From assembly GCA_016841605.1 (NCBI GenBank), contig JAENYV010000009.1, positions 18,718-82,717 of the forward strand: a stretch of DNA of 64,000 bases, written 5' to 3'. Every line of letters begins with the position of its first letter. The first letter of the stretch is position 1. The notes beneath the pieces were generated by a model. The model searched no databases, had not been told where the DNA came from, and saw only the letters and a program-made list of their open reading frames with translations. Source of the stretch: Dethiobacter alkaliphilus. Its GTDB lineage: Bacteria; Bacillota; Dethiobacteria; DTU022; UBA8154. Positions 3,228 to 63,936 of the stretch are shown piece by piece. The position numbers were made by a program, and so were the translations under genes.

Positions 3228-3500
3228 TTGTAATCCTCCTTAAAATTTTTTGACTCTTGTAATTATCAATTTTAACTTGATTATTAAATTAATTATATAT
3301 AACCAAAAAGATGGAAACAATATCCTATTTTAACAAATAATTTTTATGAATTTGTACTTTATCTACAAACCCGCTTATGGAGAATATCTTTAGGTACACA
3401 AATATCTGCTTTTGTCAGCCTCACTCACTTTTTTATAATAGCCTCCTGAAGAGAAATATAAATAAAATCGCTATACCCTCCTCTCCTTGATTACAAGATT

Positions 3501-5768
3501 TTATCCGGCTTTAAAAAGATCGGGGCATAAAAAAGATAGTGTCTTAATAGCAAAATGAGTATCAAATTTACATTTTTCTACTGAAAGATCCAAATTAAAG
3601 ATGTCTTTAAGAACATTTATACGATATCTGAGGGTGTTTATATGAATATGTAGGTCATCCGAGGTAGAGCGAAGGTTCCCATTATAATAAAAGTATCTCT
3701 CCAATGTTTTTAAAAAATAAGTTCCTTTGGAGCAGTCTGATTTTATCAATTCTTGCAATTGATTTTTCGCAATAGCTTCCAGACGTTTACGCGAATGTTG
3801 TTCCAAAAATAGTTGATAAAAACCCAGTTCTTCAAAATACATTACACCTTGCTTCCCGGTCTGTTGTAAAAAATCGACCGCACAACGGGCTTCGTAATAG
3901 GACTGTTTAATATCTTTAATATCCTTTGCGATAGAACCGATACCTATGGAAATAGTTGTGCTAATAGCTTCAAATACAACCCGCTGTACTTGGGAAAGTA
4001 AAAAATGTATTCCTTTAGACTGAGAAGGTAAACCTGTATCCTTGGGGTGTGGAATTAAAAGAATAACATCATCCCCTTTGAAGAAAACCATTCCACCGGG
4101 ACAAATTTTTTTCAACACACTGTTAAGTATCCACTTACTGCGTTTATTCCCTTGTAAAAACGGCTGCTCTTTAAGAGCTTCAATACTGTGACTTAACACT
4201 GTAACTATATATGCTCCGGTTAAATCATAGCCAAAATTAGCAGCCATGTTGACTATATCTTTTTCATGAAAACCATTATCAGATATCATTGTATTTAAGA
4301 AATCATCCCTTAAATTCTGCTCTACTTCATAAGCCATTTTCTGTTTTAAAATCTCTATGGTAAGCATATGAGCAGCCCGATCTAAAGCCAATATCTGTAC
4401 TTGACTTAATTTCGTCGTATCCTCAAAAACAACGATAACTCCTAAGAAATCATTGTTAACTTTGGGTATGGCAATCACAGCTGTTTCATCGGAACCGTTC
4501 AGAGAAAAAGTCTCACGAAAGGGTATAGAGTACATATCAGGATTTTGGGAGAGTTTCTTAAACACATTAGAAAGGGAGACCATCTGGAAATTTTCTGTCT
4601 TCTGCTTGCCGTTTTCTGATGGTATACGCTTCCAGCGAAGACAGTCAAAGAAAACCACAGGCAATTTGAAATGCCGCTCCATTCTATTAATAAAACCTTC
4701 TATACCGGTTTCCTGAATTAAAATAGTAGTTAACCTTTGATGGATATACATCAAATATTTGTATTCGTTGCAATTCACCTTCTCTTGTTGATAAATACTC
4801 CTTAATTCAACGTCATGTTTTTGCAGCTGTCTAAGTTTAAGTGTATTCATAATAAAAACAGTTATTTGTGACATCATTTGCATAAGGAGCTTTTCTTCGT
4901 TTTTGTTAAAGCCGCCGGATCGATTTATTAAGCAGTAAACTCCAATACAATTTTTTTCCAGAAGTAAAGGGAGCGCCAAAATATTATTTACTTCCACGTT
5001 GTTAAATTGATTGCCGAAGATAATTGATGCTTGCAGAGTATCATTATTATAAAATGCTCTCTGATTATTAAAGACATTTACGATAATGTTATTTTCTTCA
5101 ATTGAAAGAGTATGAGAATTTATTTCTTTATTTTTTTGAATTCCGAAAGCAGGTTCCTGTAATACTAATTCTCTGCTTTTTTCGTCATACAAGAAAAGCC
5201 CGGCATTATCAGCTAAAGCTATGGTTTTAACCCTATTGTTAATTTCAGCAAAAAAAACTCCAAGTGTACAATTCCCCAGAGCTTTTTCGCCAATTTTTGT
5301 ACATGATGTTATTATTTCCTGCTGAATAGTATTCTCCCTGTTCCGGCTATCGTGCATTAGGACATTACAAAAGTGCTGGAACAATTGTTTACCCAGGATC
5401 TTTAGAGTATACCTTACAGGATTTTGGCCCCCTCCCCAAAGCATAAAAATGTTTTTTTCATCTTTTACTTCATTAATAAAAATTATGCTATTCGGTTCAG
5501 CACCGTCCAGTTTATAAAACAATTCTTTTCCAAAGTTTGTCTTATTTTTACAGGAATAAATATCTTTTATATTAAATACCGGATCAAAGAACGACTTTAA
5601 TGAAATATGTTGATTTTTACGCATCCCTTTCCTGGAAAAAATAATTTCTTGAATTTCTGTTGTATAGACTATTATTGCCATCTGTTTCAGTTGAAGAAAG
5701 ATACGCAGTTTACGAATCAAGGTTTCCAACTTTTTTTCATCCGCAATTGGAAATTTAACCGAGATCAA
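3501..5768 (-). CDS. PucR/CdaR-family transcriptional regulator with large N-terminal sensor (GAF-like) region
   Basis: 755 aa; C-terminal PucR-type HTH (…HIHINTLRYRINVLKDIFNLDL); probable TTG start preceded by aagggggtattggg. Confidence 0.65.
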   Translation of the reverse strand: MISVKFPIADEKKLETLIRKLRIFLQLKQMAIIVYTTEIQEIIFSRKGMRKNQHISLKSFFDPVFNIKDIYSCKNKTNFGKELFYKLDGAEPNSIIFINEVKDEKNIFMLWGGGQNPVRYTLKILGKQLFQHFCNVLMHDSRNRENTIQQEIITSCTKIGEKALGNCTLGVFFAEINNRVKTIALADNAGLFLYDEKSRELVLQEPAFGIQKNKEINSHTLSIEENNIIVNVFNNQRAFYNNDTLQASIIFGNQFNNVEVNNILALPLLLEKNCIGVYCLINRSGGFNKNEEKLLMQMMSQITVFIMNTLKLRQLQKHDVELRSIYQQEKVNCNEYKYLMYIHQRLTTILIQETGIEGFINRMERHFKLPVVFFDCLRWKRIPSENGKQKTENFQMVSLSNVFKKLSQNPDMYSIPFRETFSLNGSDETAVIAIPKVNNDFLGVIVVFEDTTKLSQVQILALDRAAHMLTIEILKQKMAYEVEQNLRDDFLNTMISDNGFHEKDIVNMAANFGYDLTGAYIVTVLSHSIEALKEQPFLQGNKRSKWILNSVLKKICPGGMVFFKGDDVILLIPHPKDTGLPSQSKGIHFLLSQVQRVVFEAISTTISIGIGSIAKDIKDIKQSYYEARCAVDFLQQTGKQGVMYFEELGFYQLFLEQHSRKRLEAIAKNQLQELIKSDCSKGTYFLKTLERYFYYNGNLRSTSDDLHIHINTLRYRINVLKDIFNLDLSVEKCKFDTHFAIKTLSFLCPDLFKAG

Positions 5769-5950
5769 CCCAATACCCCCTTAACTTTCTTCTGTGCAAC
5801 TCAGGCAAATATTATGTTTTATCACAGAAATAAGGGCTTTCTCATAGCATCACTGGTTTTTCTTAAATACCATGCTTGGGGATTATTTTGCTCGGAATAA
5901 CCCCCAAGCACAAAGACAAATCCTGTTGCATCTTAGTTGTAAATGTTAAA

Positions 5951-7306
5951 TTATGCTTTAATTCTTTCTAGCAGTATCTCTACAAGTGAGGTGTTAAAAT
6001 TACCGTCCCGATACTCTTTGCTTTTAAGAATTTTTAAGTTTATAGGGATTGTTGTTTTAATTCCTTCTATTTTAAAATCCAGCAGCGCCTCTTCCATCCG
6101 ACGTATAGCTTCTAAACGTGTTGCATCTCTTACAATAACCTTAGCAATTAATGAATCATAATAAGGTAAAACAGTCGATCCTTCTGCAATAGCATGATCG
6201 ATTCTTAGATACCTGCTTTCCATGTTCGGAAATTTTAAGTTTGAAATTTTTCCTGGAGAGGGAGCGAAATTAACAGGATCTTCAGCATAAACTCTGGCTT
6301 CAATAGCATGGCCTTCCAGCATAACATCTTCCTGATTAAAATTGAGGGTTCCCCCTGCAGCGACCTCTATCTGGCATTTAACAATATCCATACCCGCTAA
6401 AAATTCCGTTACGGGATGCTCCACCTGTAACCTGGCATTTACTTCCATAAAGTAATAATTTCCATCTTCCGACCGGAGAAACTCGATTGTTCCGGCTCCT
6501 TCATAGCCCATGGCCATAACCAGTTTTCTTGTATACTCATAAAGAGCCTGACGCTCTTTCTCCTCCACTATCGGGGAAGGGGATTCTTCAATAATTTTCT
6601 GATGCTTCCTCTGTGTAGAACATTCTCTTTCACCAAGACAAATACACTTGCCCACTTTGTCAGAGAGAAACTGTATTTCGATATGTCTCGGGTTAATAAC
6701 CTGTTTCTCCAGGTAACAATCTGTTGATCCGAAAGCAACCATACCTACTCGTAAAACCCTTTCCCATACATCCTTGACTTGGTCCATTTCCTTGATTACC
6801 TCAATACCCTTTCCCCCTCCTCCTTTGTCGAGTTTGAGGAATACAGGTAATCCGAATTCAGGAATAACTTTATAAAGTTCATCCAGGCTTTTAAAAGACG
6901 CTATCGTTCCGGGTATAATGGGAACATTTACTCTAGAAGCGATTTCGCGACAGTAACACTTTGATTCAATAGCTTGCATCACCTTGGGAGGCGGACCTAT
7001 CCACGTAACACCATTGGAAACCACTGCTTCGGCAAAAGAATGATTTTCAGACAAAAATCCATAACCAGGATGGACAGCGTCAGCTTCTACTTCTTTAATT
7101 GCATTGATGATAGCTTCTCTGTTAAGGTAGCTTTTTAAAGGATTTGCCGGCCCAATGTTGTAGGTCTCATCTACTTCCTGTAAATAAAATGCATCTTTAT
7201 CGGCATCAGAATAAATTGCTGCAGTTTTAATATTTAGATCCCTGCATGTTTTAATGATTCTCCTGGCAATTTCCCCTCTGTTTGCTATTAATATCTTCTT
7301 AAACAT
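5951..7306 (-). CDS. Biotin carboxylase (ATP-grasp) subunit of a biotin-dependent carboxylase
   Basis: 451 aa; MFKKILIANRGEIARRII...; glycine-rich loop KGGGGKGIEVI; overlaps the upstream biotinyl-protein gene by 8 nt (translational coupling). Confidence 0.9.
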   Translation of the reverse strand: MFKKILIANRGEIARRIIKTCRDLNIKTAAIYSDADKDAFYLQEVDETYNIGPANPLKSYLNREAIINAIKEVEADAVHPGYGFLSENHSFAEAVVSNGVTWIGPPPKVMQAIESKCYCREIASRVNVPIIPGTIASFKSLDELYKVIPEFGLPVFLKLDKGGGGKGIEVIKEMDQVKDVWERVLRVGMVAFGSTDCYLEKQVINPRHIEIQFLSDKVGKCICLGERECSTQRKHQKIIEESPSPIVEEKERQALYEYTRKLVMAMGYEGAGTIEFLRSEDGNYYFMEVNARLQVEHPVTEFLAGMDIVKCQIEVAAGGTLNFNQEDVMLEGHAIEARVYAEDPVNFAPSPGKISNLKFPNMESRYLRIDHAIAEGSTVLPYYDSLIAKVIVRDATRLEAIRRMEEALLDFKIEGIKTTIPINLKILKSKEYRDGNFNTSLVEILLERIKA

Positions 7307-7541
7307 GGCCTAATTTTCCCTCATCCAATTCGAGAATTATCATAGAGCTTCCCACGTCCATCTCATCCCATTCTTTGGCAACTATTTGTTTTACTTTACC
7401 TTCATATTCTGAGATAACAGCCAATTCAGTTTTCATGCAGTTAATAACAGCAACCGTCTGCCCTTTTTTAACAAATTCTCCTTCACTTACAGTAACCCTG
7501 GCCACAAGTCCAGGCATGTGTGCATTAATTGTTGCTTCCAT
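7299..7541 (-). CDS. Small biotinyl/lipoyl-domain carrier protein (BCCP-like, 80 aa)
   Basis: Biotin-attachment-like ...VAVINCMKTELAVISEYEGKV...; SD aaggagag; sits directly upstream of the biotin carboxylase. Confidence 0.7.
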   Translation of the reverse strand: MEATINAHMPGLVARVTVSEGEFVKKGQTVAVINCMKTELAVISEYEGKVKQIVAKEWDEMDVGSSMIILELDEGKLGHV

Positions 7542-7560
7542 TGTTTACCTCTCCTTTTCT

Positions 7561-9243
7561 TTATTTATCTAGAATATAAACAACACCCTTATCGCCATCC
7601 ACCTTAACCCTTTGGCCTGTCTTAATCTTTGTCGTAGCTTCTACACAACCGGCTATACAGGGTAACCCATATTCACGAGCCATAATTACCGGATGGGAAA
7701 GAGCACCACCACCATCAGTAATCAATCCGCTTATTACGCTAAAAGAAACCGTCCAGGCAGCAGAAATTCCGGGTGCCACCAAAATTTCCCCCGGTTTAAG
7801 TTCGGTTAATTTATCTTGAGTCATAATTACTCTTGCCACGCCTTCTACTAAACCGGGGGCTGCTGCAGCTCCATAAAGATCGGCTTTTAGCTCTCCTCTC
7901 ACAATAGGTACTTGGGTTGATACAAAAAGGGTCGGATCGCTTCTCAATACCGCCTGTGCGTAGTTTATGTCCCCATAAAAAGGTTTGGGATCTATTGTTA
8001 AATTTTCTTGCCAGGCTTTTTTTCTTGGTTCCACATAAGGACGAAGATTAATCTTTCCCATTGGAATAGCTGCTTTTCTTATTTCATCAGGGCGCAGGAA
8101 ATGTATATCCTCCGGCTTATCAATGCATCCTGCTTCGGCAAATCGTCTGCCGAATTCTGTGACAATCCATCTTCCCATAGCCCCGATATAAAAATCACAA
8201 TAATAAGTATGGTCTTCGCTCCAGTAACTCGCCTTTTGGGCTGCTTTCAGTAATAGTTTAAAAGTTTCTCGCTGCCCCACGGGTACTTTATACAGAATTT
8301 CGTCAATTGTGCGTTCCCTCTCAGCAATAACCTTGCTTTTAGCGACATCAAAAGCGAAAACTTCATCTGCCATTAACATGCGAATATTTCCGATAGCTAA
8401 AGCAGGTTTTTCAACCCAGGCCGGAGTATCGTATGCATGCATGCGCTCACATCTCCAGCCGTGTTCAAAAAGAAATTCTTTATATTCCTTTAACCACTGC
8501 AAGCCTGCATCACTTGTTTCCATATTTTGTAATACCTGTTCATTATCTTCGGTATTGAAAGCTTCATTGAGGCCTAGTTCCACCGCACGCCTTGCAAGAA
8601 ACCATAAGTCCCTGACCACTTTAACGGCCATACTTTCGAAACCGGCTGTCACCTTACTGAATTTCGGATCAATTGCTGCTTCAACTCCAAAAATGCTTTT
8701 CCACATTTGTTGGAATAAACTACCGATATAATAAGAAACCATTAACATAACAAAATGAATTTCAGCTTCTTTTCGATTTAGAACATAGGCAAAATCCAGA
8801 AAAAAGGAAAGAAGTTCAATATTGCTAAGCTTTTCAATATCTTCCCATTCTTTTAACCCCCTAGATTCTCTCGCATCCTTATAACTATTAATTAAATCCT
8901 GCTTGTAAGGATCCCATACTCCATCAAAATCTTCAATAAACGGTTTAATCTTCTCTTTAAAAATAGGTTCCCGTGCTTTTCTTTCTTCCTCTGTAGTTCT
9001 GATAGCGGTAATATATGGATATCCATTAATAAATCTCGAATCCCAACCATGAGAAGTGGGCAAATGGAATGTTTCCGCTCCGAACCGTATACCGTGGTAG
9101 TACCAATACCACCCTAATCCAATGTAAAGAGGTTTCATCGGAGGCTTCCCATGTACTAAATCACAAAGTAATACATCATAGTTCTTAGGATCGTTCTCCT
9201 CATCAAATTCATAAAAGCTTAAGTCATAAGCCGGTGCTAACAT
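7561..9243 (-). CDS. PEP-utilising-enzyme mobile (phospho-His) domain protein with a ~470-aa N-terminal region of unknown type; His-domain half of a split PEP-synthase/rifampin-phosphotransferase-like kinase
   Basis: 560 aa; C-terminal ...TDGGGALSHPVIMAREYGLPCIAGC...VKVDGDKGVVYILDK matches the swivelling His domain of PEP synthase/PPDK; no PPDK_N domain and no TIM barrel; strong SD aaggagga. Confidence 0.75.
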   Translation of the reverse strand: MLAPAYDLSFYEFDEENDPKNYDVLLCDLVHGKPPMKPLYIGLGWYWYYHGIRFGAETFHLPTSHGWDSRFINGYPYITAIRTTEEERKAREPIFKEKIKPFIEDFDGVWDPYKQDLINSYKDARESRGLKEWEDIEKLSNIELLSFFLDFAYVLNRKEAEIHFVMLMVSYYIGSLFQQMWKSIFGVEAAIDPKFSKVTAGFESMAVKVVRDLWFLARRAVELGLNEAFNTEDNEQVLQNMETSDAGLQWLKEYKEFLFEHGWRCERMHAYDTPAWVEKPALAIGNIRMLMADEVFAFDVAKSKVIAERERTIDEILYKVPVGQRETFKLLLKAAQKASYWSEDHTYYCDFYIGAMGRWIVTEFGRRFAEAGCIDKPEDIHFLRPDEIRKAAIPMGKINLRPYVEPRKKAWQENLTIDPKPFYGDINYAQAVLRSDPTLFVSTQVPIVRGELKADLYGAAAAPGLVEGVARVIMTQDKLTELKPGEILVAPGISAAWTVSFSVISGLITDGGGALSHPVIMAREYGLPCIAGCVEATTKIKTGQRVKVDGDKGVVYILDK

Positions 9244-9407
9244 TTTTTTCCTCCTTTATCTAATTTGCCAAATCTAAATATTAATTTGAAAATTTTAACA
9301 TTTTTTTGTCTGGCTAATGGGTTAATCACCTCCTAAGAAACTTTTTGCTTTCAAGTGGAGCAAATTTTTTACTAATACAAAATTTTTTAGTTTTCTTGCA
9401 AGTTAAA

Positions 9408-10427
9408 TTAAAATAAATTCATCATATAATCTGCAATTTGGTCCACTGGATTCTTTTTTACGACAATAATCTCAGCACGTGTCTGCAGGAGAATAATATT
9501 TTCGGGAAAAGGCAGATCATCGTCTACAGCCCATTCCACATCCTGAGGAACATTGAAGTTATCTTCCAAGGCTTTACCTAATTTAACAACTTCTTTAAGT
9601 TCAATATCACTTAAACAAAAAGCTAAACTTTTCTCTTCAGGAGTATCATCCGCAACTACTCCCTTTTCACTAGCCTTAATAAATTTATTTTTCTTACCGA
9701 GTGTTTTTTTAATAGGCTTTTCACTTTCCTTATCTACGATATATATATCCGGCATAACTTCACCACCTACCACACTCTCCCCTAATCCCCAATTCGCTTC
9801 AATAATCATAGTAGAAGTATCACCTGTATTAGGATCGGCTGTAAACATAACACCTGCACAACGGGCGTTTACCATCTTTAGCACAGCTACGCCAATTGGA
9901 TCGCTTTCTAATAGAAGGCCTTTTTGTGCCCTCATCGCTAGAGAACGAGAATTAAAAGAGCTTGCCCAGACTTTTTTGATTTTCTCCAGTAGCTCCGACT
10001 CACCCTTTACATTTAGGTATGTCTCATATTGCCCGGGGTGGCTTTTCGGACCTGCCGACCTTGTGGAAACAGGCACGTCGGGAGCCCCGCATCGCAGAGA
10101 TAAGTCTTTATAGTTTTCAAGAATTTCTTTTTTCATCTTCTCCGGCATTTCCTTCGCTTCGACGATCTGTCGTATCTCTTTGCTGGCATTATTAAATTGT
10201 TCAATAGTTTTAAGACCATCTTCAAATTTTTGCAGGTACTTCTTAATTTCTTCCAAAGCATTTGTTTTAATCATAAATTCCCTATATGCATCTACAGAAA
10301 GCGCAAATCCGGGAGGAATAGGAAGCCCTATTTTACTTATTGCTCCAATGTTTGCGCACTTTCTACCAACTATATCCCCATGTTCTTCTCCTAACTCTTC
10401 CATCCAATACAAAATTTTCTCTCCCAT
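9408..10427 (-). CDS. PPDK_N (PEP-synthase N-terminal ATP-grasp nucleotide-binding) domain protein; ATP-binding half of the split kinase
   Basis: GRKCANIGAISKIGLPIPPGFALSVDAYREFM resembles the PEP-synthase N-terminal signature; start reassigned to the ATG at 10427 (SD aaaaaaggagga), not the track's upstream TTG extension. Confidence 0.75.
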   Translation of the reverse strand: MGEKILYWMEELGEEHGDIVGRKCANIGAISKIGLPIPPGFALSVDAYREFMIKTNALEEIKKYLQKFEDGLKTIEQFNNASKEIRQIVEAKEMPEKMKKEILENYKDLSLRCGAPDVPVSTRSAGPKSHPGQYETYLNVKGESELLEKIKKVWASSFNSRSLAMRAQKGLLLESDPIGVAVLKMVNARCAGVMFTADPNTGDTSTMIIEANWGLGESVVGGEVMPDIYIVDKESEKPIKKTLGKKNKFIKASEKGVVADDTPEEKSLAFCLSDIELKEVVKLGKALEDNFNVPQDVEWAVDDDLPFPENIILLQTRAEIIVVKKNPVDQIADYMMNLF

Positions 10428-10608
10428 TTTTATCCTCCTTTTTTCTAAAAAGTAAGATATAACAATTAATTTTTGAGACATTTTATTCAATAAAGCTATA
10501 CTTAATAGTAGCAATTATTATTTTAATCAGCAATATTTTACTTCTACAATATTATTGATAAAATAACATCATGACTTAAACAATATGAAATATACGGGAG
10601 TATGTTTT

Positions 10609-11979
10609 TTATGCATAGTTACTCCTTAGCGCATTGGCAGCCAACATCTCGTCTACGTCTCGATTCGTCATAGAAAAGCGCAAAAGAAACTCCTCATCAG
10701 ATACATTATCGCCAATCCCCATTTGTTTGCGAATCTCTTTTACTGAAGGTTGCTCAAATTCTTTATTAAGAAAGTCCTTTGCCCGGGGAAGACTGGTTAT
10801 TTTATCAAGTACATTGGGCTCTATCGGCATATTGTGTCCACCAAACCAACCTGCCACATATTGAAATATGCTATCAGAAACCTGTTTGTAACGTTCACCG
10901 GATATAACGTTCATAGTAGCTTGAGTACCCACAAACTGTGAAAATGGAGTAACCATAATAGGATATCCCAGTTCTTGCCGCACTTGAGCGACTTCTTCCA
11001 GAACCTCTTCTAAGCGATGACCCATCTTTACTTCCGAAAGATGGCGTTTAAGAGTTGTAAGCATCCCACCGGGAACCTGATGCTTGTAATAAGAAAGGTC
11101 ATGTTCTACCGGCATTCCGGAAGGGCGCCCTTCCTTTTCGGCAATCGTTTTAAAGTAAATCGACATTTCGTCTAAGACTTCTTTATTACACTTGACCTTA
11201 TATCCCATATGAGTAGCATTATGCATAATATTCAGCGCTGACGGCAAAGAAGAACCATATGCCAGGGGGGGAACAGCTACATGAAAGGTTTTGACACCAA
11301 GTTTCATCGCTTCTAAATAGCAAAGGGGAGCCAACCCGGTATTGCAATGTGAGTGGATTTCAAGGGGAAGTTTGCCGATATTCTGTTGAATTACAGGTAT
11401 TAGAGTCTTGACACGATCGACTGTAAGCAACCCTCCTGAGTCTTTGAGGTAAACAATATCGACATCAGGACAACCAGCTACCTGTTTTGCTTTTTCGGCA
11501 AAAAATTCATCCGTATGCACAGGACTAATGGAGAACGGCAGCGCTATCATAACCTCATCAATGCCGGCTTCTTTAGCCATTCGAGCTGTACGGAAAATAA
11601 GGTTCATATCATATGCGGCGTCCAATATCCAGACGCGCCTTATTCCACAAGTTTTAACCGTTTTGAGTACCAATTCCTGGATCGATTCAGGAATGCGACC
11701 AAAACCGATGAAGCGCCTTCCGGTTGTTCCAAAACTTAAGATAGTGTTAGGCATTGCCTTGGCGCATATCCTGATCATTTCCCAAGGGTTTTCCTTATGA
11801 AAGTGTACCAGTACTCCCATATTAATACTTGAGGCAAAATCTATTGCCCTAAAACCAACCCTGTCTATTACCGGAGCAATAGGGAGAATCATACCGGTTT
11901 TAAGTCCCGTAGCATCCCACAAACTTTGATTGCCGTCTCGTATTGTTGTATCAACTAAACAAATCTCATCTCTGCTCAC
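10609..11979 (-). CDS. Carboxyltransferase, pyruvate-carboxylase 5S / oxaloacetate-decarboxylase-alpha-like TIM barrel, no biotinyl domain
   Basis: 456 aa; DTTIRDGNQSLW, carbamyl-lysine-like YLKDSGGLL and an HxH motif (EIHSHCNTG); GTG start with SD aaggaggt. Confidence 0.7.
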   Translation of the reverse strand: MSRDEICLVDTTIRDGNQSLWDATGLKTGMILPIAPVIDRVGFRAIDFASSINMGVLVHFHKENPWEMIRICAKAMPNTILSFGTTGRRFIGFGRIPESIQELVLKTVKTCGIRRVWILDAAYDMNLIFRTARMAKEAGIDEVMIALPFSISPVHTDEFFAEKAKQVAGCPDVDIVYLKDSGGLLTVDRVKTLIPVIQQNIGKLPLEIHSHCNTGLAPLCYLEAMKLGVKTFHVAVPPLAYGSSLPSALNIMHNATHMGYKVKCNKEVLDEMSIYFKTIAEKEGRPSGMPVEHDLSYYKHQVPGGMLTTLKRHLSEVKMGHRLEEVLEEVAQVRQELGYPIMVTPFSQFVGTQATMNVISGERYKQVSDSIFQYVAGWFGGHNMPIEPNVLDKITSLPRAKDFLNKEFEQPSVKEIRKQMGIGDNVSDEEFLLRFSMTNRDVDEMLAANALRSNYA

Positions 11980-12034
11980 GAAAAACTACCTCCTTTTTAA
12001 GCGGCCTTGCATCTTTGAAAGTAATTTTTAGCCT

Positions 12035-13294
12035 TTACTGATCAGACGGACCCTTCTTTGCTGAGGCTTTTCCGACTACTTCGTTAAAAGCGGTAACTAT
12101 TGCTTTGGCAAAAGCCTGAGAATCAATATTCTCTTCAACCTCGACCACTTCAACCTCTGCCTTCAGATTCTTTTTAAGAATATCAACAAACAGCTGAATA
12201 GAGTGCCGATCGTACAGGCTACTTCCTTCCTTTTCAATAGAGAGCCACCCTTTCATGGGGACAAGAAACTTTGTTGGACCTACTGCTTTGTTTAATTTTT
12301 CTGCGTATAATAAAGTAATATCCTCTAATTCCTGAATATTTAAATATACAGTTACCCTTCGATCATCCATAAAATTGTGTTTACGCTTCGCAAGCTCAGG
12401 AGCTAGTTCCTCAGGAGTAAATCCCACTCGGGATAGTGTATTGACCCCAGCAGGAGCTATTACTTGTGGAATACCTTTCTCCCCGGCTACCTCCAGCCTT
12501 CTCGACCAAGAAGTCCGGGAGCCCCCAAATTTTTGGTTAGTTATACTGGAAGGAACCAGGTCAATAACACCACAGAAATAACCGTCCTCAATTAGTTTTT
12601 CCATGGCTATTTCCGGAGTACCGGCGGCATGAAAACGTATAAGCTCATATTTTTCAGAGAGTGCATCACTTATGAATCGGGCACAGTTATCCACATATCC
12701 AAAGACTGACATGGCGACCATAGGTAAATCATTACCGGACTTAAGGTTGGAAATTTCGCCGTCAACCATACCGCTAATAGCCCCCGCCGCCCTATTTAGC
12801 TGAGCTTTTAGCAGGAAATTAAGGCCTCCAATGTCGATTAGAGAGTGCATCAAGGTTATCCCTGAAGTACCGAAGACTCTATGAGAACCCGGCATAGAAG
12901 CTCCACTTGAGACAATAAGCTTAGGTATGCTAAAGGGCATATTCTCCATTATCTCCGAAGTCATGATCATACTGCTCATTCCTCCAATGGACATCATCCC
13001 TTCTACCTCTCCATTACGACAGAGCTCATCCAATTTTTCCGCTGCCCCTTTTATCATTATCTCTGTTACTTTTTGCCTCTCCTGCGAATTCCTCAAACTT
13101 TCTACTTGTACTCCGGCGGTATGAGCTACTTCTTTCGCAGTAATATCTGCTTTTAGTCTGGGCTCTCCCCCGGTACCGATATCAATAATGAGTGGATGAT
13201 GACCTCTCCTAATTATTAGTTCCTTAAGGTAGCCCATCTCTTCTCCTTTGGTATCCAGCGTCCCGATTAGGACTATATGCTTTTTGCCAGGCAC
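12035..13294 (-). CDS. UPF0261 / Tm-1-like family protein
   Basis: 419 aa; N-terminus (M)PGKKHIVLIGTLDTKGEEMGYL typical of UPF0261; GTG start with SD aaaggag. Confidence 0.5.
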   Translation of the reverse strand: MPGKKHIVLIGTLDTKGEEMGYLKELIIRRGHHPLIIDIGTGGEPRLKADITAKEVAHTAGVQVESLRNSQERQKVTEIMIKGAAEKLDELCRNGEVEGMMSIGGMSSMIMTSEIMENMPFSIPKLIVSSGASMPGSHRVFGTSGITLMHSLIDIGGLNFLLKAQLNRAAGAISGMVDGEISNLKSGNDLPMVAMSVFGYVDNCARFISDALSEKYELIRFHAAGTPEIAMEKLIEDGYFCGVIDLVPSSITNQKFGGSRTSWSRRLEVAGEKGIPQVIAPAGVNTLSRVGFTPEELAPELAKRKHNFMDDRRVTVYLNIQELEDITLLYAEKLNKAVGPTKFLVPMKGWLSIEKEGSSLYDRHSIQLFVDILKKNLKAEVEVVEVEENIDSQAFAKAIVTAFNEVVGKASAKKGPSDQ

Positions 13295-13321
13295 TTTTAT
13301 TTACTCCTTTCTTAACTTTCC

Positions 13322-13465
13322 TTAGCTATTATGGATATGTTCTTTTTATCGGTCCGGCTGCCAACATTTCATCAACATCTTTGTCGGTCATGGAATAACG
13401 CAGAAGAAACTCCTCATCGGAAACTTTAGGGGCGATACCTATTTGTTTGCGAATCTCGCTTACCT
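13322..13465 (-). pseudogene. 3'-terminal remnant (48 codons) of a paralogous 5S-like carboxyltransferase gene
   Basis: Translates VSEIRKQIGIAPKVSDEEFLLRYSMTDKDVDEMLAAGPIKRTYP*, aligning with the C-terminus of the 10609..11979 product (…VKEIRKQMGIGDNVSDEEFLLRFSMTNRDVDEMLAANALRSNYA); upstream it breaks into AT-rich non-coding DNA. Confidence 0.7.
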
Positions 13466-13621
13466 ATTAAAAATAATATTTTAAAACTTATAAATATTAT
13501 AATTATGAGAACAATGTATAAACAATATATTTTCTTCACATTTTTTTTAACATTCGTTGTATGTTTTTCACTACGGTAATTAATAAATTCATTTTCCCAT
13601 TGTGTATTACTTACTCAACAA

Positions 13622-13665
13622 TAGAAAAAGATCCAAATCCTTAAAAACGGATTTGGATCTTTTTC
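13622..13665 (-). terminator. Rho-independent terminator (bidirectional hairpin) downstream of the HD-domain gene
   Basis: aaagatccaaatcc-ttaaaaac-ggatttggatcttt stem-loop with T-runs on both strands. Confidence 0.6.
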
Positions 13666-13694
13666 TTAAATTAAAGCCGTTAAAACCTCGTGCT

Positions 13695-14270
13695 CTACTT
13701 CTTTATAAACTTCGAACTTATTTTTTCCAGTCCTTCCGTTGCCATCACTTTGGCGTAATCCGTATATAACCACTGTTCTTTATTATCACGGAGATATTCC
13801 CAGTACTTCTGAGGTTGCATCTTAAAACGTCGGTTGTCTATATCAAACCCCCGTGGATTAAAGCGAAAAAGCTTATCTGCATCTTTAACCAGTTTCTCTT
13901 CAAGATTGCTGGGATTATTTCCTGAATCATGCGTTTCAATTATACGGCATATTTCCAGACGGTCTTTCTGCTCAAAAGAGATCCGGCATAAAATGGACGC
14001 AGCAATTTTCGCTCCTTCCACTTCATGGATACGGTTTAATTCTTTATCGGGATTACCAGGACCAAAAGCCATGTTAATTTTTTCTTCCGGTAGAGCGCTC
14101 CATCCCACATCATGTAAAAGGATCGCGGGAAGCACAACTTCCTCCCTGCCACCGTAAAACTTCAGTAATTTGACGGCATAATCGAAACATATCTCTGTAT
14201 GAACTCGATTTTCCCGTACAGCTAAGTAGGGAGCCGCCAGCTCAAATATTTCCTGATATAATTCTTTCAT
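13695..14270 (-). CDS. HD-domain phosphohydrolase
   Basis: LLHDVGW HD motif; start moved to the internal ATG (MKELYQEIF...) with SD aaaaaggaggagg. Confidence 0.6.
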   Translation of the reverse strand: MKELYQEIFELAAPYLAVRENRVHTEICFDYAVKLLKFYGGREEVVLPAILLHDVGWSALPEEKINMAFGPGNPDKELNRIHEVEGAKIAASILCRISFEQKDRLEICRIIETHDSGNNPSNLEEKLVKDADKLFRFNPRGFDIDNRRFKMQPQKYWEYLRDNKEQWLYTDYAKVMATEGLEKISSKFIKK

Positions 14271-14454
14271 AAGTTCTCTTCCTCCTCCTTTTTCTCTCAA
14301 TACAATTATAATCTTACAAATATTAATGCGATTTAGCAAGTTTTATTTTTTCTTTACCCGTTTAGGTAAATTGATCGAAAAAAAACCATCCCTTTTTTAC
14401 AGGGATGATCTTTAATTCTCTTCCGCATTTTAGAACAAAATCTAATTTTTCACT

Positions 14455-16011
14455 TTAAATCATACGAAGTTTAAATCTTTGAACTTTTCCACTCGCAGTA
14501 CGCGGCAAATCGTTCATAAATTTGAACCATTTCGGGCATTTGTAATGAGCGGTTTTACTGCGTACAAAGTCCTTTAACTCTTGTTCAAGTTGAAGAGACG
14601 GCTCACAACCTTTATTAAGTACTACAAAGGCTAGAGGCTTCTCTAAATTTGATGAATCAGGTGCCCCAATAACTGCACAATCCAACACTGCATGATGTTC
14701 CAGTAGTATTCCTTCGATTTCTAAAGGAGAAACCCAAATACCACCTGATTTGAGCATATCATCGGCACGACCTGCATACCAATAAAAACCCTCATCATCC
14801 ATATAGAACTTGTCACCGGTATTAAACCACTCACCCAAAATATTTTGCTTTGATTTTTCATGGTTGTTCCAGTAGTAGGGTGTGGTACCATCGTTTTTTA
14901 CCCAGAGGGTGCCAATCTCTCCTAACGGAACTTCCTTATTGTCTTCATCAAGGAGTTTTCCCTCGAAACCTGGGAGAAGAAGACCACTACTTCCGGGCTT
15001 TACCTTCCCCGGCAAATTGGAAATGTAGATAACACCCGTATCAGTTGAACCGACACCATTAATAATATCCATACCGAATTTTTCCTTCCAGCGGTCAAAA
15101 ATTGCTTTGGGAAGGGCTTCCCCCGCAGAGATGCACAGGCGCAAAGAGGAAAAGTCAAATTCCTTTTCACTGCTTTCCAGTAGGCTAAGTATACCCGCGT
15201 AGGAAGTGGGGATACTGAAAAAAATTGTCGGTTTATACTTAGTAATAATCTCAACCAGTTTTTCCGGCTTCGGCATCTCCGATTCCAGAATTACCGCTGC
15301 ATTGCATAAAAAGGTCGTTTCGATTGAATTTTCCCTGCCATAAGAGAAGTACATCTTGGAGGCGGAAAAAAGAATATCGTCATCCCGGACCTGGAGCACC
15401 TCTCTGCAATAAGGGGGCAAATAAAAGAGCAGGTCGTGATGGAGATGGACAACCCCCTTGGGTGTACCGGTAGTACCGGAACTGTACATCCAGAAACACA
15501 TGTCATCCTTTGAAGTAAGGACGACTTCCAGGGAATCTGCTGCACCCTCGATCAGTTCCTCAAAGCTCAACTGTCCCGATTCGGGCTTACCAAGGACAAT
15601 AAAATACTTCAGGTACCTCAGATCTTCTTTTACCTCTTTTATTTTTTCTGCTATCTCTTGTGTGGTAACAAGAACCTTAGCACGGCTGTCGTTTAAATAA
15701 AAACGGTAATCTGACGGCAACGCCATCGTACTTACCGGTACTGGAACCGCCCCAATTCTCATCGCACCAAAATATACGTACAAGAATTCAGGACAATCAG
15801 GGAGAGAGAACATAACACGGTTTTCCTGCTCTACACCAAGTTCGTGCAAAACATTGCCAACGCGGTTAGCATAACTAATTAACTCCGCATAAGTAATTTT
15901 CTTTTCCTTATAGTAGACTGCTACTTTTTCCCCTCTGCCTTCCTCAATATGTCGATCCAGCAAAAAAGCTCCCAAGTTAAACTCCTGTGTAATTTCAGGC
16001 ACTCTTATCAT
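14455..16011 (-). CDS. AMP-dependent CoA ligase (aryl/acyl-CoA synthetase family)
   Basis: 518 aa; YSSGTTGTPKGV AMP-binding motif; SD ggaggag. Confidence 0.85.
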   Translation of the reverse strand: MIRVPEITQEFNLGAFLLDRHIEEGRGEKVAVYYKEKKITYAELISYANRVGNVLHELGVEQENRVMFSLPDCPEFLYVYFGAMRIGAVPVPVSTMALPSDYRFYLNDSRAKVLVTTQEIAEKIKEVKEDLRYLKYFIVLGKPESGQLSFEELIEGAADSLEVVLTSKDDMCFWMYSSGTTGTPKGVVHLHHDLLFYLPPYCREVLQVRDDDILFSASKMYFSYGRENSIETTFLCNAAVILESEMPKPEKLVEIITKYKPTIFFSIPTSYAGILSLLESSEKEFDFSSLRLCISAGEALPKAIFDRWKEKFGMDIINGVGSTDTGVIYISNLPGKVKPGSSGLLLPGFEGKLLDEDNKEVPLGEIGTLWVKNDGTTPYYWNNHEKSKQNILGEWFNTGDKFYMDDEGFYWYAGRADDMLKSGGIWVSPLEIEGILLEHHAVLDCAVIGAPDSSNLEKPLAFVVLNKGCEPSLQLEQELKDFVRSKTAHYKCPKWFKFMNDLPRTASGKVQRFKLRMI

Positions 16012-16029
16012 AACGTTTCTCCTCCTAAC

Positions 16030-17343
16030 TTAAAATTTTGCATAGTTCGGCAAAAACAATGCTATCTTTGGGAATAGAATCACTAATAGCGACGTAATTA
16101 TGAGAGAAAGTATGAAGGGATAGATGCCTTTAAAGATATGCTCCAGGGGTATCTGCGGCGCTATACCCTTAACTACATAAACATTACTGCCTACAGGTGG
16201 TGTTATTACGCCTAACTGTGCAACCAGCACGATAACTACTCCAAACCAGATAGGGTCCAAACCGAGGTGGAGGATAACCGGGTAGAGGACGGGGACAAGA
16301 AGAGTAATAAGGGCCATAGAATCAATGAAACATCCGCCTAATATAAATATTATGACGATAATTACAGATATAGTAGTTGCCGAAAAGGGAAGTGATTCAA
16401 CCCAATCTGCGATAATAAACGGAATGGTTGTTACAGCCATAAATTTGCCGAAAATAGTAGCTCCGGTAATAAGGCAGATAATCATAGCGGCCGTCCGCAA
16501 ACCATCTTTGATAAAATAAGCGAACCTGGGCCATGTTATCTGGCGATGCACCAATCCTATTATTATCGTCGCAAATGCCCCAATACCGGCCCCTTCAACC
16601 GGACTAAACCACCCAAGGAACATTCCCCCAATGACCAGAAGGAAAATAATAACAGCATCAGATATGCCAAGCAATGATTTTAGTTTTTGCCTCCAGCTTC
16701 TGCGTTCGCCCGGCGGTCCCATAATGGGGTTAAAACGACAAATAAGATGAACTGTGAGGGCAAACAGCAGGGCTAAGATCAAGCCCGGGAAAATCCCTGC
16801 CACAAAAAGTTTTCCGATAGACTGTTCTGTAAGAAAGCCATAGACAATAAAAACGGTACTGGGAGGTATAAGAATACCGAGGGTGCCGCCTGAAGCAACA
16901 ACTCCTGCAGCCAGAGTATCATGATAATTATATTTCTTCATTTCAGGAAGCGCTATTCTACCCATTGTAGCTGCCGTAGCATTTGTAGAACCGCAAATTG
17001 CAGCAAAACCTGAACACCCTATAATAGTAGCAATACCCAAACCACCCCTTAGATCACCAACTACTTTGTAGGCACTATCATAAAGCCTTTCACCAATACC
17101 GGCGATAAAAGCAAAAGAGCCCATCAGTACAAACATCGTAATAGCACAAAGGGAATAATTATAAAACTGCCCCAAAAATTCCCGCGCCAACATGGCTGTT
17201 CCCGCCGACCACGATGTTATATAACAAAACCCTACCAAACCCACAAAGGCCATGGCAAAAGCTATGTGCATCCTCAGAAAAAAGAGAACAAGAAGCAGAA
17301 CTATCCCCGCAATACCGACTTCAATTGGACTCATTTTTTGCAC
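16030..17343 (-). CDS. dctM: TRAP transporter large permease (DctM family)
   Basis: 437 aa, polytopic membrane protein with DctM-type N-terminus. Confidence 0.8.
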   Translation of the reverse strand: MQKMSPIEVGIAGIVLLLVLFFLRMHIAFAMAFVGLVGFCYITSWSAGTAMLAREFLGQFYNYSLCAITMFVLMGSFAFIAGIGERLYDSAYKVVGDLRGGLGIATIIGCSGFAAICGSTNATAATMGRIALPEMKKYNYHDTLAAGVVASGGTLGILIPPSTVFIVYGFLTEQSIGKLFVAGIFPGLILALLFALTVHLICRFNPIMGPPGERRSWRQKLKSLLGISDAVIIFLLVIGGMFLGWFSPVEGAGIGAFATIIIGLVHRQITWPRFAYFIKDGLRTAAMIICLITGATIFGKFMAVTTIPFIIADWVESLPFSATTISVIIVIIFILGGCFIDSMALITLLVPVLYPVILHLGLDPIWFGVVIVLVAQLGVITPPVGSNVYVVKGIAPQIPLEHIFKGIYPFILSLIITSLLVILFPKIALFLPNYAKF

Positions 17344-17821
17344 CTCTTCCTGTTGCGAATAAGGTAATAATTTCGTTCAAAAAGAAAAGTAATGCGGCAG
17401 CAGAACCAAAAGCAATAGCAAAAGCAAAAGGATAAAAGGGAATAAACGCCCCGGAACTTATCTCCCCCGCTTCTTTCAAAGAAATTCCATAAAAATAGCT
17501 CTTATAGCTAAGAATAGCAAAGAAAATCAATTCTAATACCAACATAGTCAAATTTATCCACTTTTGAGCGGAACCGGGCAAACGATCGACTACAAACTCA
17601 ACTGCAATATGTCGTTTATCCAACAGATCAATGGCAATTGCAAAGGATATTGCTACTATTTGAGCAAAACCTATCATTTCTGTCGCACCGCGGAGAGGCG
17701 CAAGAAACAACTTGGCACCGACTACATTTATAAATGTAACGGCTATCATGACCACAACTCCTGCAACGCCTATCCATTCAATCGTTTTAATGCATTTGTC
17801 AGAAAATACCTTAAATTTCAT
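17321..17821 (-). CDS. dctQ: TRAP transporter small permease (DctQ family)
   Basis: 166 aa, four hydrophobic segments; overlaps the dctM start. Confidence 0.7.
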   Translation of the reverse strand: MKFKVFSDKCIKTIEWIGVAGVVVMIAVTFINVVGAKLFLAPLRGATEMIGFAQIVAISFAIAIDLLDKRHIAVEFVVDRLPGSAQKWINLTMLVLELIFFAILSYKSYFYGISLKEAGEISSGAFIPFYPFAFAIAFGSAAALLFFLNEIITLFATGRGAKNESN

Positions 17822-17942
17822 TATACAGCATCCTTTTTAAAAAAATTCCGGAATATTAAAACTGCTATGTTTAATTCTTAATACACTCCGGGCCATCACT
17901 CTATCAGTGACGGCCCTTTGAATGCATTTAATAATCTCTATA

Positions 17943-19106
17943 TTAATACTCCTGGTAAACCTCAGGCGGACCCGTCTCAGATTTTATCCCGAGCTCAATC
18001 TGTTTCTTAAGCCAGTATTCGGTTCTTTCTTTAATAAAGTCCAACCATTCATTTATTTCATTTTCAGAATAACCATTAGACACCATGTTAGCCTTATAAT
18101 CATCAATAACCTTATCCGCTTTCTCCTTCCATATCGGAAGTTCTGCATCCGGTACTACATATATTTCAAAATTTTCATCAATAGCATATTGTTTTCCCAT
18201 AATTCCTATGTCATTCCACATTTTGGCAAGGTCATCTACGAACTCTTCTTCCACGTATTTATTAATTATCTCCTGAATATCTGCGGGCAGCTTGTTCCAG
18301 GTGTCTTTGTTCATTGTAATATAAAATGTGTAAACATTGCTGGTTTGCCATACCTCTGTTATATTATTAACAACCTCTCCATATTTGTAGGTCTGCATCG
18401 TTTCATAGGGAATTAACAATCCGTCAATTATGTTTTTTGCTAAGAAATCGTAAGCTTCAGGCATGGGTAATGCACGGGCTACTCCTCCCATTGATTCGAG
18501 AAGCTGCGCTATATATCCTGTACCCCTTAGAGTAAGACCTTTCAGATCATCAGGCTTTTTAATCGGAGTATTAATAGTTATAATATTATTAAGGCTTGAA
18601 GTAGTAAGTGTGAGGATATGGGTATCATCGAATTCCTGGGGCTTAAATTTATTATAAAAATCGGCAGCAACGTGATTTGCTACCCATCCATTTGGAAAAC
18701 CAATAGGAAGATCAAGAACCTGCGTTACTGGAAAACGCCCAAAGGTATAAGCTAAATTTGAATATCCAATATCTGCAATTCCTTCAACAACACCATCGTA
18801 CATTTTATCCGCAGCAAGTAACATACTTCCCGGAAAGAACTCAAATTTAACTCTTCCATCGGTAAGCCCCTCAATATCTTCAGCAAACTTTACAAGTGCT
18901 TTGCTCTGATAAGCTTCCCCAGGATTATAAGTAGCCATTCTAAGAGTTGTGACACTATCGGGAGCAGGCTTTGTATCCTCAGTATTCTCCGTATTACTTT
19001 GGCCGCCAACATCCCCCGCCGGTTGAGAGGCACATCCAGCGAACGCCACCATCACCAATAAACTCAGAATTAACAAACTTAAAACAAAAATTCTTTTAGC
19101 CATCAT
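17943..19106 (-). CDS. dctP: TRAP transporter solute-binding lipoprotein (DctP family)
   Basis: 387 aa; signal peptide + lipobox AFAGC; completes the P-Q-M gene order. Confidence 0.75.
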   Translation of the reverse strand: MMAKRIFVLSLLILSLLVMVAFAGCASQPAGDVGGQSNTENTEDTKPAPDSVTTLRMATYNPGEAYQSKALVKFAEDIEGLTDGRVKFEFFPGSMLLAADKMYDGVVEGIADIGYSNLAYTFGRFPVTQVLDLPIGFPNGWVANHVAADFYNKFKPQEFDDTHILTLTTSSLNNIITINTPIKKPDDLKGLTLRGTGYIAQLLESMGGVARALPMPEAYDFLAKNIIDGLLIPYETMQTYKYGEVVNNITEVWQTSNVYTFYITMNKDTWNKLPADIQEIINKYVEEEFVDDLAKMWNDIGIMGKQYAIDENFEIYVVPDAELPIWKEKADKVIDDYKANMVSNGYSENEINEWLDFIKERTEYWLKKQIELGIKSETGPPEVYQEY

Positions 19107-19540
19107 GTTAACCCTCCTTTTATTTCAAAATAAACCCCACTTCTTTACCCATCTTGATAACAACAGCTTTGGTTAAACCTCGAGGATTTTCATAATCGAA
19201 ATCTTTGCACCCCCTCTGAGAGAACTTGTCAAATACAGCGATATGACCAGGCTTGTAAAGCAAAATTATAGGTAAAATTTAATTCTAATATTAATCAATC
19301 GGGCGAGAACGGAATAAAATAATATTTCTAAGGTTCTAACAATTTAAAATAGAGTATCAGGGAAATACAAACTAAACAGCAAGAGGCTCCACAAAACTCC
19401 TCGTAATACAGAAAAATTTTATTTGTTGAACTATATTCAATATATCACCTATTATTTAACTTGACAATTATTCATTTTTATCTTTATGTTTTAAATAATT
19501 TGTTTTAGACTAAAATATCTCATATTTTTTAAATTTAATT

Positions 19541-19700: not shown

Positions 19701-19710
19701 TTTTACTATT

Positions 19711-63710: not shown

Positions 63711-63711
63711 A

Positions 63712-63859: not shown

Positions 63860-63936
<77 letters not shown>

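Follow-up and report, generated by a model that had tools for sequence, protein, structure and literature searches.

We analysed a 64,000-nucleotide stretch of contig JAENYV010000009.1 of Dethiobacter alkaliphilus (assembly GCA_016841605.1), referred to here in its entirety as the window, from an anaerobic lineage of Bacillota (Dethiobacter relatives). By analogy with characterised pathways, six of its genes probably encode an anaerobic counterpart of Hpe/Acv, a module that first phosphorylates and then carboxylates hydroxyaryl ketones, a reading to which we assign a probability of roughly 60%. The minus strand holds every gene from 23969 down to position 1, and the six in question are, in order of transcription, those for a MarK-like UPF0261 protein (12035..13294; Pfam UPF0261 and UPF0261_C), a 456-aa carboxyltransferase of the 5S type (CT, 10609..11979; PYC_OADA and HMGL-like), the ATP-grasp subunit of a kinase (KinB, 9408..10427; PPDK_N 1e-82, residues 18-333), its 560-aa partner with a rifampin phosphotransferase (RPH)-type substrate domain and a swivelling phospho-His domain (KinA, 7561..9243; PEP-utilizers 6e-22, residues 483-553), an 80-aa biotin carboxyl carrier protein (BCCP, 7299..7541; Biotin_lipoyl 1e-11), and a biotin carboxylase (BC, 5951..7306; Biotin_carb_N, CPSase_L_D2 2e-60, Biotin_carb_C). 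The original prediction had described this block as a split phosphoenolpyruvate (PEP) synthase- or RPH-like kinase clustered with a three-part biotin-dependent carboxylase. All the genes that it named and all the motifs that it quoted were recovered in their places by Pfam and NCBIfam, with overwhelming family scores. Individual open reading frames (ORFs) were annotated over ~1-38 kb of the window, and family memberships, motifs (including a signature in the CT), operon limits, and co-occurrence were read directly from the data.

Two hairpins delimit the unit. The first, terminator-like, lies on the minus strand directly 3' of the stop codon of an upstream HD-domain gene (13623..13666; dG -27.4 kcal/mol, z -8.2) and consists of a perfect 18-bp stem followed by U-rich sequence, which none of 200 shuffles matched in folding (0/200). 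The second, of 16 bp, was found in a fold of 5769-5918 on the same strand directly 3' of the BC stop (5872..5911) and is probably the 3' end of the core operon. We infer that UPF0261-CT-KinB-KinA-BCCP-BC (13294..5951) is one functional unit with a hairpin at either end, and that the genes for the HD protein, a CoA ligase (Lig2), and a TRAP transporter make up the preceding transcription unit. Within the operon, KinA and KinB each have an AGGAGG ribosome-binding site, the gaps around both genes are without significant structure, and the BCCP gene overlaps the start of BC by 8 nt. A scan for consensus promoters and terminators gave counts at background level and missed both hairpins (13623-13666 and 5872-5911), and an Rfam search returned no match inside the cluster.

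Judged by alignments and motifs, KinA and KinB together are a two-component RPH-like dikinase of the PpsAB/rifampin phosphotransferase type. KinA aligns over its full length (residues 15-558) with PpsA of Azoarcus sp. KH32C at 26% identity, a reference gene that belongs to a classic ppsABC-ppcBDAG cluster, and the identity of KinB to the Azoarcus PpsB is 34%. Structures of rifampin phosphotransferase align with KinA over its residues 234-559, and a database protein identical to KinA carries PF27448 (Rph_4th); in the local Pfam search PEP-utilizers was the sole domain, and a PEP/pyruvate TIM barrel is lacking. The T/S-x-x-G-G-x-x-x-H motif that defines the swivel domain (PMC12167813) is present in KinA as T509-DGGGALS-H517, with the catalytic His517 in TDGGGALSH. 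As in PpsA and CreH, the regulatory Thr two residues before this His is missing, with Leu at -2 and Ser at -1. Models of PEP synthase match KinB alone (260 bits) or the His domain alone, and PEP-utilizers_C is absent from both proteins. Among structures, KinB matches PDB 9GOJ (387 aa, deposited as "phosphoenolpyruvate synthase", E 3e-50), which may be a structure of HpeI. An AlphaFold2 model of KinA from an 11-sequence alignment reached a mean pLDDT of 48 and was not used; the RPH-like fold is thus taken from sequence evidence. By analogy with its relatives, the dikinase would phosphorylate a phenolic hydroxyl (ATP -> AMP + Pi); rifampin phosphotransferase phosphorylates a hydroxyl of rifampin. 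The same dikinase architecture and His motif are found in PpsAB(C)/PpcABCD of Thauera and Azoarcus, but carboxylation in the window would be biotin-dependent and directed to a side chain rather than the ring. A PEP synthase split by a frameshift was considered and rejected, since each gene has its own ribosome-binding site, the two-gene state is conserved in 44 related loci, and there is no TIM barrel. The claim of a split kinase of this kind thus stands, also as a genuine two-gene arrangement.

The chemistry that we propose for the window is not new, as the acetovanillone pathway of Hpe/Acv has been on record since 2022. The dikinase HpeHI of Rhodococcus rhodochrous GD02 phosphorylates 4-hydroxyacetophenone and acetovanillone on the phenolic hydroxyl. 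HpeCBA, a biotin enzyme, carboxylates only these phospho-compounds, at their acetyl group, and leaves the phosphate in place; HpeD then removes the phosphate, followed by CoA ligase HpeE and hydrolase HpeF (PMC9618137). Homologous genes, whose products catalyse the corresponding reactions, are acvABCDEF of Sphingobium sp. SYK-6, with AcvC as BCCP, AcvD as BC, AcvE as CT, and AcvF as HAD phosphatase (bioRxiv 10.1101/2022.04.28.489975), while XccABC of the denitrifier Aromatoleum aromaticum EbN1 is homologous to AcvCDE/HpeCBA and clustered with hpeHI homologues (PMC9618137; bioRxiv 10.1101/2022.04.28.489975). CreHI phosphorylates the phenolic substrate of the 4-cresol pathway. Work on the Hpe/Acv/MarK pathway has dealt with aerobes, with lignin valorisation as its aim, and the authors suspected an anaerobic origin. 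The original prediction had held that such chemistry is assigned only to hydantoinase-type or UbiD-type carboxylases, a view overtaken by Hpe (PMC9618137), Acv (bioRxiv 10.1101/2022.04.28.489975), and MarK (PMC12624787). Its general route of phosphorylation, carboxylation, CoA ligation, and thiolysis remains the best reading. The labels of the Xcc subunits conflict between Table 1 of PMC9618137 and bioRxiv 10.1101/2022.04.28.489975, one having XccA as biotin carboxylase and XccC as carboxyltransferase and the other XccA as CT and XccC as BC; the reported masses of HpeA (57.4 kDa) and HpeB (49.3 kDa) fit the scheme of XccA as CT and XccC as BC better.

The window shares with Hpe/Acv an RPH-like two-component dikinase clustered with a three-part biotin carboxylase, a 5S-type TIM-barrel CT without biotinyl domain, and an AMP-forming CoA ligase downstream. 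It differs in that a HAD phosphatase is missing, leaving the HD protein of the next unit as sole candidate, in having a thiolase in place of the HpeF/VceB hydrolase or thioesterase, and in its host, a strict anaerobe with an adjoining reductase resembling benzoyl-CoA reductase (BCR). XccABC, predicted to be a 4-hydroxyacetophenone carboxylase, provides an anaerobic precedent, but its host is a denitrifying betaproteobacterium and no UPF0261 partner has been reported. What sets the window apart is a kinase clade of its own, the presence of both types of kinase within one operon, a PycB-type carrier encoded separately, the lack of a HAD phosphatase, and an obligately anaerobic setting.

Comparisons of CT, BC, and BCCP used plasmid clusters with acv gene order as proxies, in place of authentic HpeCBA, AcvCDE, and XccABC. 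In a tblastn search against plasmids, the CTs nearest to that of the window were those of acv-ordered clusters: 49% identity to the CT of a Rhizobium cluster (dikinase alpha, dikinase beta, BCCP, BC, CT, HAD, acetoacetate-CoA ligase) and 46% to that of a Sphingomonas bisphenolicum cluster (Tm-1-like, BCCP, BC, CT, HAD). As these two share 51% with each other, the window CT lies within the diversity of Acv-like CTs, compared with identities of ~30% to OadA and ~25% to pyruvate carboxylase (PYC). The LLRGQN motif of PYC is replaced by GTTGRRF in the window and by TTG(M/L)RF in the two Acv-like CTs, so that TTGxRF is common to all three. A Thr thus stands in place of the LLRGQN Arg, which binds the carboxylate of pyruvate in PYC. 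The metal ligands are intact (D in DTTIRDGNQS, K in YLKDSGG, HxH in HSHCNTG), and a fused biotinyl domain is lacking. We predict from these features an AcvE/XccA-type CT, and by analogy with HpeCBA we expect BC, BCCP, and CT to carboxylate the phosphorylated ketone only. The BC gene is complete and of accC type, and the biotinyl lysine of the BCCP is likely Lys36 in CMKT. The BCCP matches the C-termini of PycB and PYC in NCBIfam and has its homologue in the C-terminal domain carried by the ~590-aa CTs of Syntrophorhabdus-type loci. A housekeeping pyruvate carboxylase was rejected on the motif and identity data.

This second CT type tied to the KinA family, of ~590 aa and with a fused C-terminal biotinyl domain, is found in L008, L009, L012, L030, L033, L038, L040, L043, L044, L048-L050, L055, L058, and L059 of our set of loci and also in L006 (9962-11461). 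A Glu replaces its carbamylated metal-bridging Lys (IMIEDASG vs xKDxxG), and RGSYQIGSLSSF stands at the position of LLRGQN in PYC. In a plasmid cluster of Rhodococcus oxybenzonivorans, which also encodes PPDK-like proteins, a thiolase, an OB-fold protein, and a tyrosine phosphatase, the CT likewise has Glu in place of this Lys, and its second motif starts in a related way with Arg-Gly/Ala-Ser/Thr.

The UPF0261 protein was present as described in the original prediction, but is no longer an uncharacterised bystander, as the family now counts as a kinase family. MarK (Saro_1862) of Novosphingobium aromaticivorans, an aromatic kinase converting ATP to ADP, was the first catalytic function for UPF0261, in 2025; it replaces AcvAB, and its gene lies directly upstream of acvCDEF (PMC12624787). 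MarK is the best PDB match of the window protein (9MPY, E 1e-39, full length). The ATP site D14/T15/K16 is kept, as are G195 and the phenol-binding H219. The protein is thus a candidate MarK-like ATP-dependent aromatic kinase. In the same family alignment, the Tm-1-like protein of S. bisphenolicum, serving as control, keeps 10/10 functional residues of MarK and is ~28% identical to the window protein, and the anaerobe homologues retain D14/T15/K16 in nearly all cases and G195 and H219 in all but one. The window resembles the MarK/AcvCDEF locus of N. aromaticivorans in having a full-length UPF0261 gene directly beside carboxylase genes, but its UPF0261 gene co-occurs with a dikinase, whereas MarK replaces one.

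The co-occurrence of these genes is conserved across phyla. The best 120 of 709 matches to KinA are 68-100% identical and all ~560 aa long. A scan of species-representative genomes gave 54 KinA loci (L007-L060), all from metagenome-assembled genomes (MAGs) of anaerobes affiliated with Syntrophorhabdus, Desulfobacteraceae, Desulfatiglandales, Syntrophaceae, Chloroflexota, Dehalococcoidia, Moorellales, and Dethiobacteria-like Bacillota. The clade is 64-82% identical across phyla (64-77% in the loci of other phyla), and KinB and KinA occur as two genes in 44 related loci. Neighbours were counted, after clustering of ORFs, in those 27 loci where KinA is flanked by 6 kb or more on each side: KinB was found in 23/27, an isochorismatase-like protein in 22/27, UPF0261 in 18/27, CT in 16/27, BC and DUF2284 in 11/27 each, and an orthologue of the window's CoA ligase Lig1 as well as a KAS-III/HMGS-like plus OB-fold protein together with a thiolase in 8/27 each. 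A recurrent order of the Syntrophorhabdus type starts with LysR, followed by CT(+BCCP)-BC-UPF0261-KinB-KinA-Lig1-(HMGS-like/OB)-thiolase. The two closest relatives (79-81% identity) have KinB-KinA-BCCP(76 aa)-BC and, with the order shuffled, also UPF0261, an isochorismatase-like gene, and a CT of 457 aa. Because the gene set is conserved despite this shuffling, and since the genes are interleaved in the window, the proposed link between the kinase pair and the three-part carboxylase is supported. No HAD or HD phosphatase was conserved in the related anaerobe loci, and literature searches (UPF0261 with phenylphosphate; Syntrophorhabdus with hydroxyacetophenone) yielded no description of the anaerobe clade in the searchable literature.

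Other recurrent genes accompany the kinases. After KinB, the commonest neighbour of KinB-KinA is an isochorismatase-family protein of ~240 aa, found in 32/54 loci of the genome scan and additionally in L061 (2894-3607) and L062 (7163-7762); its motifs VVDMQNAF and NLCVEST look like those of a Cys-hydrolase. A DUF2284 metal-binding protein is often alongside, and neither is found in the window. Several genomes (L016, L031, L050, L060, L063) carry two KinA paralogues near each other; identity to the window KinA is 64-75% for some of these pairs, and others include a distant pair (KinA 31-35%, KinB 39-43%), which suggests kinase sets for several substrates. Downstream of KinA/Lig1 in L030, L033, L038, L040, L043, L046, and L059 lies a fusion of a KAS-III/HMG-CoA-synthase-like protein with a ChsH2-type OB-fold, then an SCP-x-type thiolase, together forming a conserved "lower" part of the anaerobe clusters. 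This arrangement resembles the archaeal thiolase/HMGS/DUF35 complex and BbsAB-type thiolases.

From these homologies, which also predict the substrate class and every catalytic step, the following route may be proposed. KinB would bind ATP, His517 of KinA would be pyrophosphorylated, and after loss of the gamma-phosphate the beta-phosphate would be passed to a phenol in the RPH-like domain (ATP -> AMP + Pi), the target of this initial step being the phenolic hydroxyl of a hydroxyaryl methyl ketone. The MarK-like UPF0261 enzyme (ATP -> ADP) might phosphorylate the same or a second phenolic substrate. BC would carboxylate biotin on the 80-aa carrier at the expense of ATP and bicarbonate, and the metal-dependent CT would produce a phospho-aroylacetate by moving the CO2 onto the aryl-phosphate ketone at its acetyl methyl carbon. 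The phosphate would then be removed, possibly by the CreD-like HD hydrolase next door, Lig1 would form the CoA thioester, the thiolase would cleave it into hydroxybenzoyl-CoA and acetyl-CoA, and the adjoining BCR-like reductase might dearomatise the ring.

Genes for these later steps flank the operon on the same strand. Lig1 (1650..3227), an AMP-forming acyl-CoA ligase (AMP-binding), has orthologues of 58-78% identity (mostly 67-78%) near KinA in 15 loci, directly after KinA in most, and we propose that it is a beta-keto-acid CoA ligase and conserved partner of the module. The thiolase-family gene (1..1021) is cut by the window edge, scores 127 bits with TIGR01930 (below cut-off), and has a 55% identical homologue in L043; it is proposed to act in thiolysis of aroylacetyl-CoA. 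A beta-keto-acid product fits with the Lig1 orthologues in those 15 loci and with the thiolase and OB-fold protein that follow in Syntrophorhabdus-type loci. The HD-domain phosphohydrolase (13695..14339; HD 1e-8) aligns with the HD protein at the creD position of a creJIHGEFDC-like cluster of Rhodococcus (29% identity over 178 aa, E 7e-22) such that the H, HD, and D motifs line up, and by homology it is the sole phosphatase candidate near the operon, a putative CreD-like aryl-phosphate phosphatase. In the Cre pathway described by Du et al. in 2016, CreD reportedly removes the phosphate at the end. In a transcriptome table of C. glutamicum, creD is listed as a phosphohydrolase (PMC7764795). The HD protein and Lig2 were both found in the block as originally predicted, but they belong to the neighbouring transcription unit behind the terminator hairpin and not to the core operon. 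The four reductase subunits (19855..23969), two BcrAD ATPases and two HGD-D subunits, constitute a divergent bzd-type class I BCR-like enzyme; the BzdQ, N, and O models score 207-232 bits against equivalog cut-offs of 380-454, and this BzdNOPQ-like enzyme probably reduces an aryl-CoA that is not benzoyl-CoA.

A number of observations weigh against an Hpe/Acv-type module. KinA is 25-30% identical to Pps, Cre, and Hpe-like kinases, which share 43-45% with each other, and is ~50 aa shorter than its Hpe/Acv counterpart; likewise, KinB is 30-34% identical to PpsB, CreI-like, and HpeI-like subunits (Azoarcus, Rhodococcus, and Rhizobium plasmid clusters), which share 41-48%. Both fall outside the clade of characterised phenol kinases (~45% mutual identity), and because identities are so low, substrate specificity is not transferable from Pps, Cre, or Hpe. 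The BC is 39-40% identical to Hpe/Acv-type BCs, which share 50-55% mutually. The 80-aa BCCP is of the PycB/OadA C-terminal type, without significant similarity to the Hpe/Acv-type carriers, which are AccB-like, 157-191 aa long, and have a VMKL motif. In the UPF0261 protein, the MarK pocket residues responsible for acetyl-ketone binding and ring stacking are replaced (T196Y, F283T, I285V/S, H304M, H348I), making the pocket more hydrophobic than that of MarK, and every anaerobe homologue replaces T196 (Y/F), H304 (M/I/L), and the ketone-binding H348 (I/L/V). The HD gene lies behind the terminator hairpin and has a homologue in only 1/54 related loci, a weak one at the locus edge. Moreover, 10/27 full loci hold the kinase pair with no carboxylase within 10 kb, among them a locus of Desulfomonilaceae beside a sulfatase and the setting in Desulfobacteraceae, where radical SAM and enoyl-CoA hydratase genes lie nearby, so KinA/KinB are not tied exclusively to carboxylation. 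Finally, 0 cultured organisms are among the members of the KinA clade that were found. Caution is therefore called for on three counts: the kinases lie far from characterised ones, the pocket of UPF0261 is altered, and BC and BCCP are of a different type.

Some of these deviations would be explained if the module of strict anaerobes were more than a copy of Hpe, with UPF0261 returning the aryl phosphate to ADP after carboxylation or the whole clade acting on an unrecognised class of phenolic substrates, which we regard as unlikely. In the phosphate relay that would follow from the former, the dikinase would install the aryl phosphate, the carboxylase would act, and UPF0261 would run in reverse (aryl-phosphate + ADP -> phenol + ATP), replacing a hydrolytic phosphatase and refunding one ATP to a cell short of energy. 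UPF0261 genes beside dikinase genes in 18/27 anaerobe loci make the two kinases look non-redundant, no HAD or HD phosphatase is conserved there, the product of MarK is ADP rather than AMP in a formally reversible reaction, and the pocket differs at the acetyl-contact positions as expected if the ligand were the carboxylated product. Against this stand the missing biochemical precedent for a UPF0261 enzyme in reverse, the HD hydrolase that does lie nearby in the window, and the reading of genomes holding both kinase types (~25% of those with an aromatic kinase) as broader substrate range (PMC12624787), so that the relay, too, would be a long shot. A route resembling Cre, where an alkylphenol or simple phenol is phosphorylated early for protection, side-chain chemistry comes next, and carboxylation of a ketone is an optional later step, appears improbable. 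It would account for the ten loci in which the kinase pair lacks CT or BC and radical SAM, enoyl-CoA hydratase, isochorismatase-like, and DUF2284 genes appear instead, as well as for the more hydrophobic UPF0261 pocket, and it has a precedent in CreHI/CreD of Corynebacterium and Rhodococcus, which pair a two-component phenol dikinase with an HD-domain phosphohydrolase for the final removal of the aryl phosphate. However, the kinases are interleaved with carboxylase genes in the window and its closest relatives, the HD gene is outside the operon and not conserved in relatives, and neither a P450, alcohol dehydrogenase, or aldehyde dehydrogenase nor any other side-chain hydroxylase or dehydrogenase was found among the annotated window genes.

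The enol-phosphate mechanism put forward in the original prediction, where the dikinase, like PEP synthase with pyruvate, makes an enol phosphate from an unactivated ketone and the CT carboxylates this enol phosphate or the enolate with release of phosphate, has become quite improbable. The 260 bits of KinB with PEP synthase models speak for it, and the downstream CoA ligase and thiolase would also fit acetone or acetophenone carboxylation. Yet KinA has an RPH-type domain instead of the PEP/pyruvate TIM barrel, all characterised two-component relatives act on phenolic hydroxyls (or, in the wider family, that of rifampin), and the UPF0261 protein keeps His219, the ligand of the phenolic oxygen in MarK. 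In addition, HpeCBA requires the aryl phosphate and leaves it in place through carboxylation of the acetyl methyl group, with a separate phosphatase acting later. Still harder to defend is a chance adjacency of a phenylphosphate synthase for phenol and an anaplerotic two-subunit pyruvate/2-oxoglutarate carboxylase or an oxaloacetate decarboxylase, which we consider very improbable. The generic NCBIfam names (PycB 300 bits, accC 535 bits), the best PDB match of the CT (the beta subunit of a two-subunit pyruvate carboxylase), and the PycB-type BCCP point in this direction, and the window shares with PycAB (PDB 5KS8) and OadA the CT fold, metal ligands, and type of biotinyl domain, its BC being accC/PycA-like. 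However, all these scores fall below equivalog cut-offs, the CT reaches at most ~30% identity (<=~30%) and is much closer to Hpe/Acv-type CTs, LLRGQN has changed to GTTGRR with Thr replacing the presumed pyruvate ligand, and the biotinyl domain is a separate gene. The carboxylase genes are also embedded among aromatic-kinase genes with a co-occurrence conserved across phyla, and, unlike in the Azoarcus cluster, no PpsC or UbiD/UbiX-type phenylphosphate carboxylase (PpcABCD) was found among the genes annotated in 1-38 kb.

If the Hpe/Acv-type reading is true, the module would be a likely route for the oxygen-free degradation of lignin- or alkylphenol-derived aromatic ketones in peat, sediments, and digesters, and would provide candidate genes for re-annotating MAG genes now labelled "PEP synthase" and "pyruvate carboxylase". 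It would also raise the testable question of why two different kinases are kept side by side. Should the relay prove true, it would amount to substrate-level ATP recovery, and syntrophs and sulfate reducers could then afford to carboxylate ketones in a biotin-dependent way.

The surroundings of the operon seem to have been reshaped. Directly upstream of the UPF0261 start lies a relic of ~110 nt of the 3' end of a second CT gene (13329..13439, minus strand), which reads GIAPKVSDEEFLLRYSMTDKDVDEMLAAGPIKRTYP* and was recognised by DNA alignment with 10600-10720. It is ~66% identical to the end of the intact CT gene over 121 aligned columns, and the stop codons coincide, thus this region was rearranged. 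The relic suggests an ancestral CT->UPF0261 junction cut by the rearrangement that brought in the HD/ligase/TRAP unit. In that unit, Lig2 (14455..16011, minus strand) belongs to the benzoate-CoA-ligase family (TIGR02262, 536 bits vs cut-off 375; HbdA model 378 bits, below cut-off) and is preceded by genes for the TRAP transporter subunits DctM, DctQ, and DctP (16030..19106, minus strand); together they may provide the same lower pathway with the corresponding aromatic acid. Between BC and Lig1, a GAF and PucR-type transcriptional regulator is encoded on the minus strand (3501..5768; GAF_2, GGDEF_2, HTH_30).

The G+C content is 0.34-0.42 over most of the catabolic block (2001-20000), 0.45 over the reductase genes, and 0.43-0.49 in the adjacent ribosomal-protein/RNA-polymerase region (26000-58000). 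This contrast, together with the 64-77% identity of KinA in loci of other phyla, is compatible with horizontal acquisition of the catabolic block. From ~25.7 kb onward (to ~38 kb) the annotated genes are mostly housekeeping ones (ribosomal proteins, RpoA, SecY). RpoB shares 84% identity with that of a Dethiobacter sp. MAG and 78% with that of D. alkaliphilus, which puts the organism close to Dethiobacter. At the far end of the window, on the minus strand, Rfam detected an L10 leader (RF00557, 66.8 bits) and three tRNA genes (59741-59882 and 63637-63936), likewise ordinary housekeeping elements.

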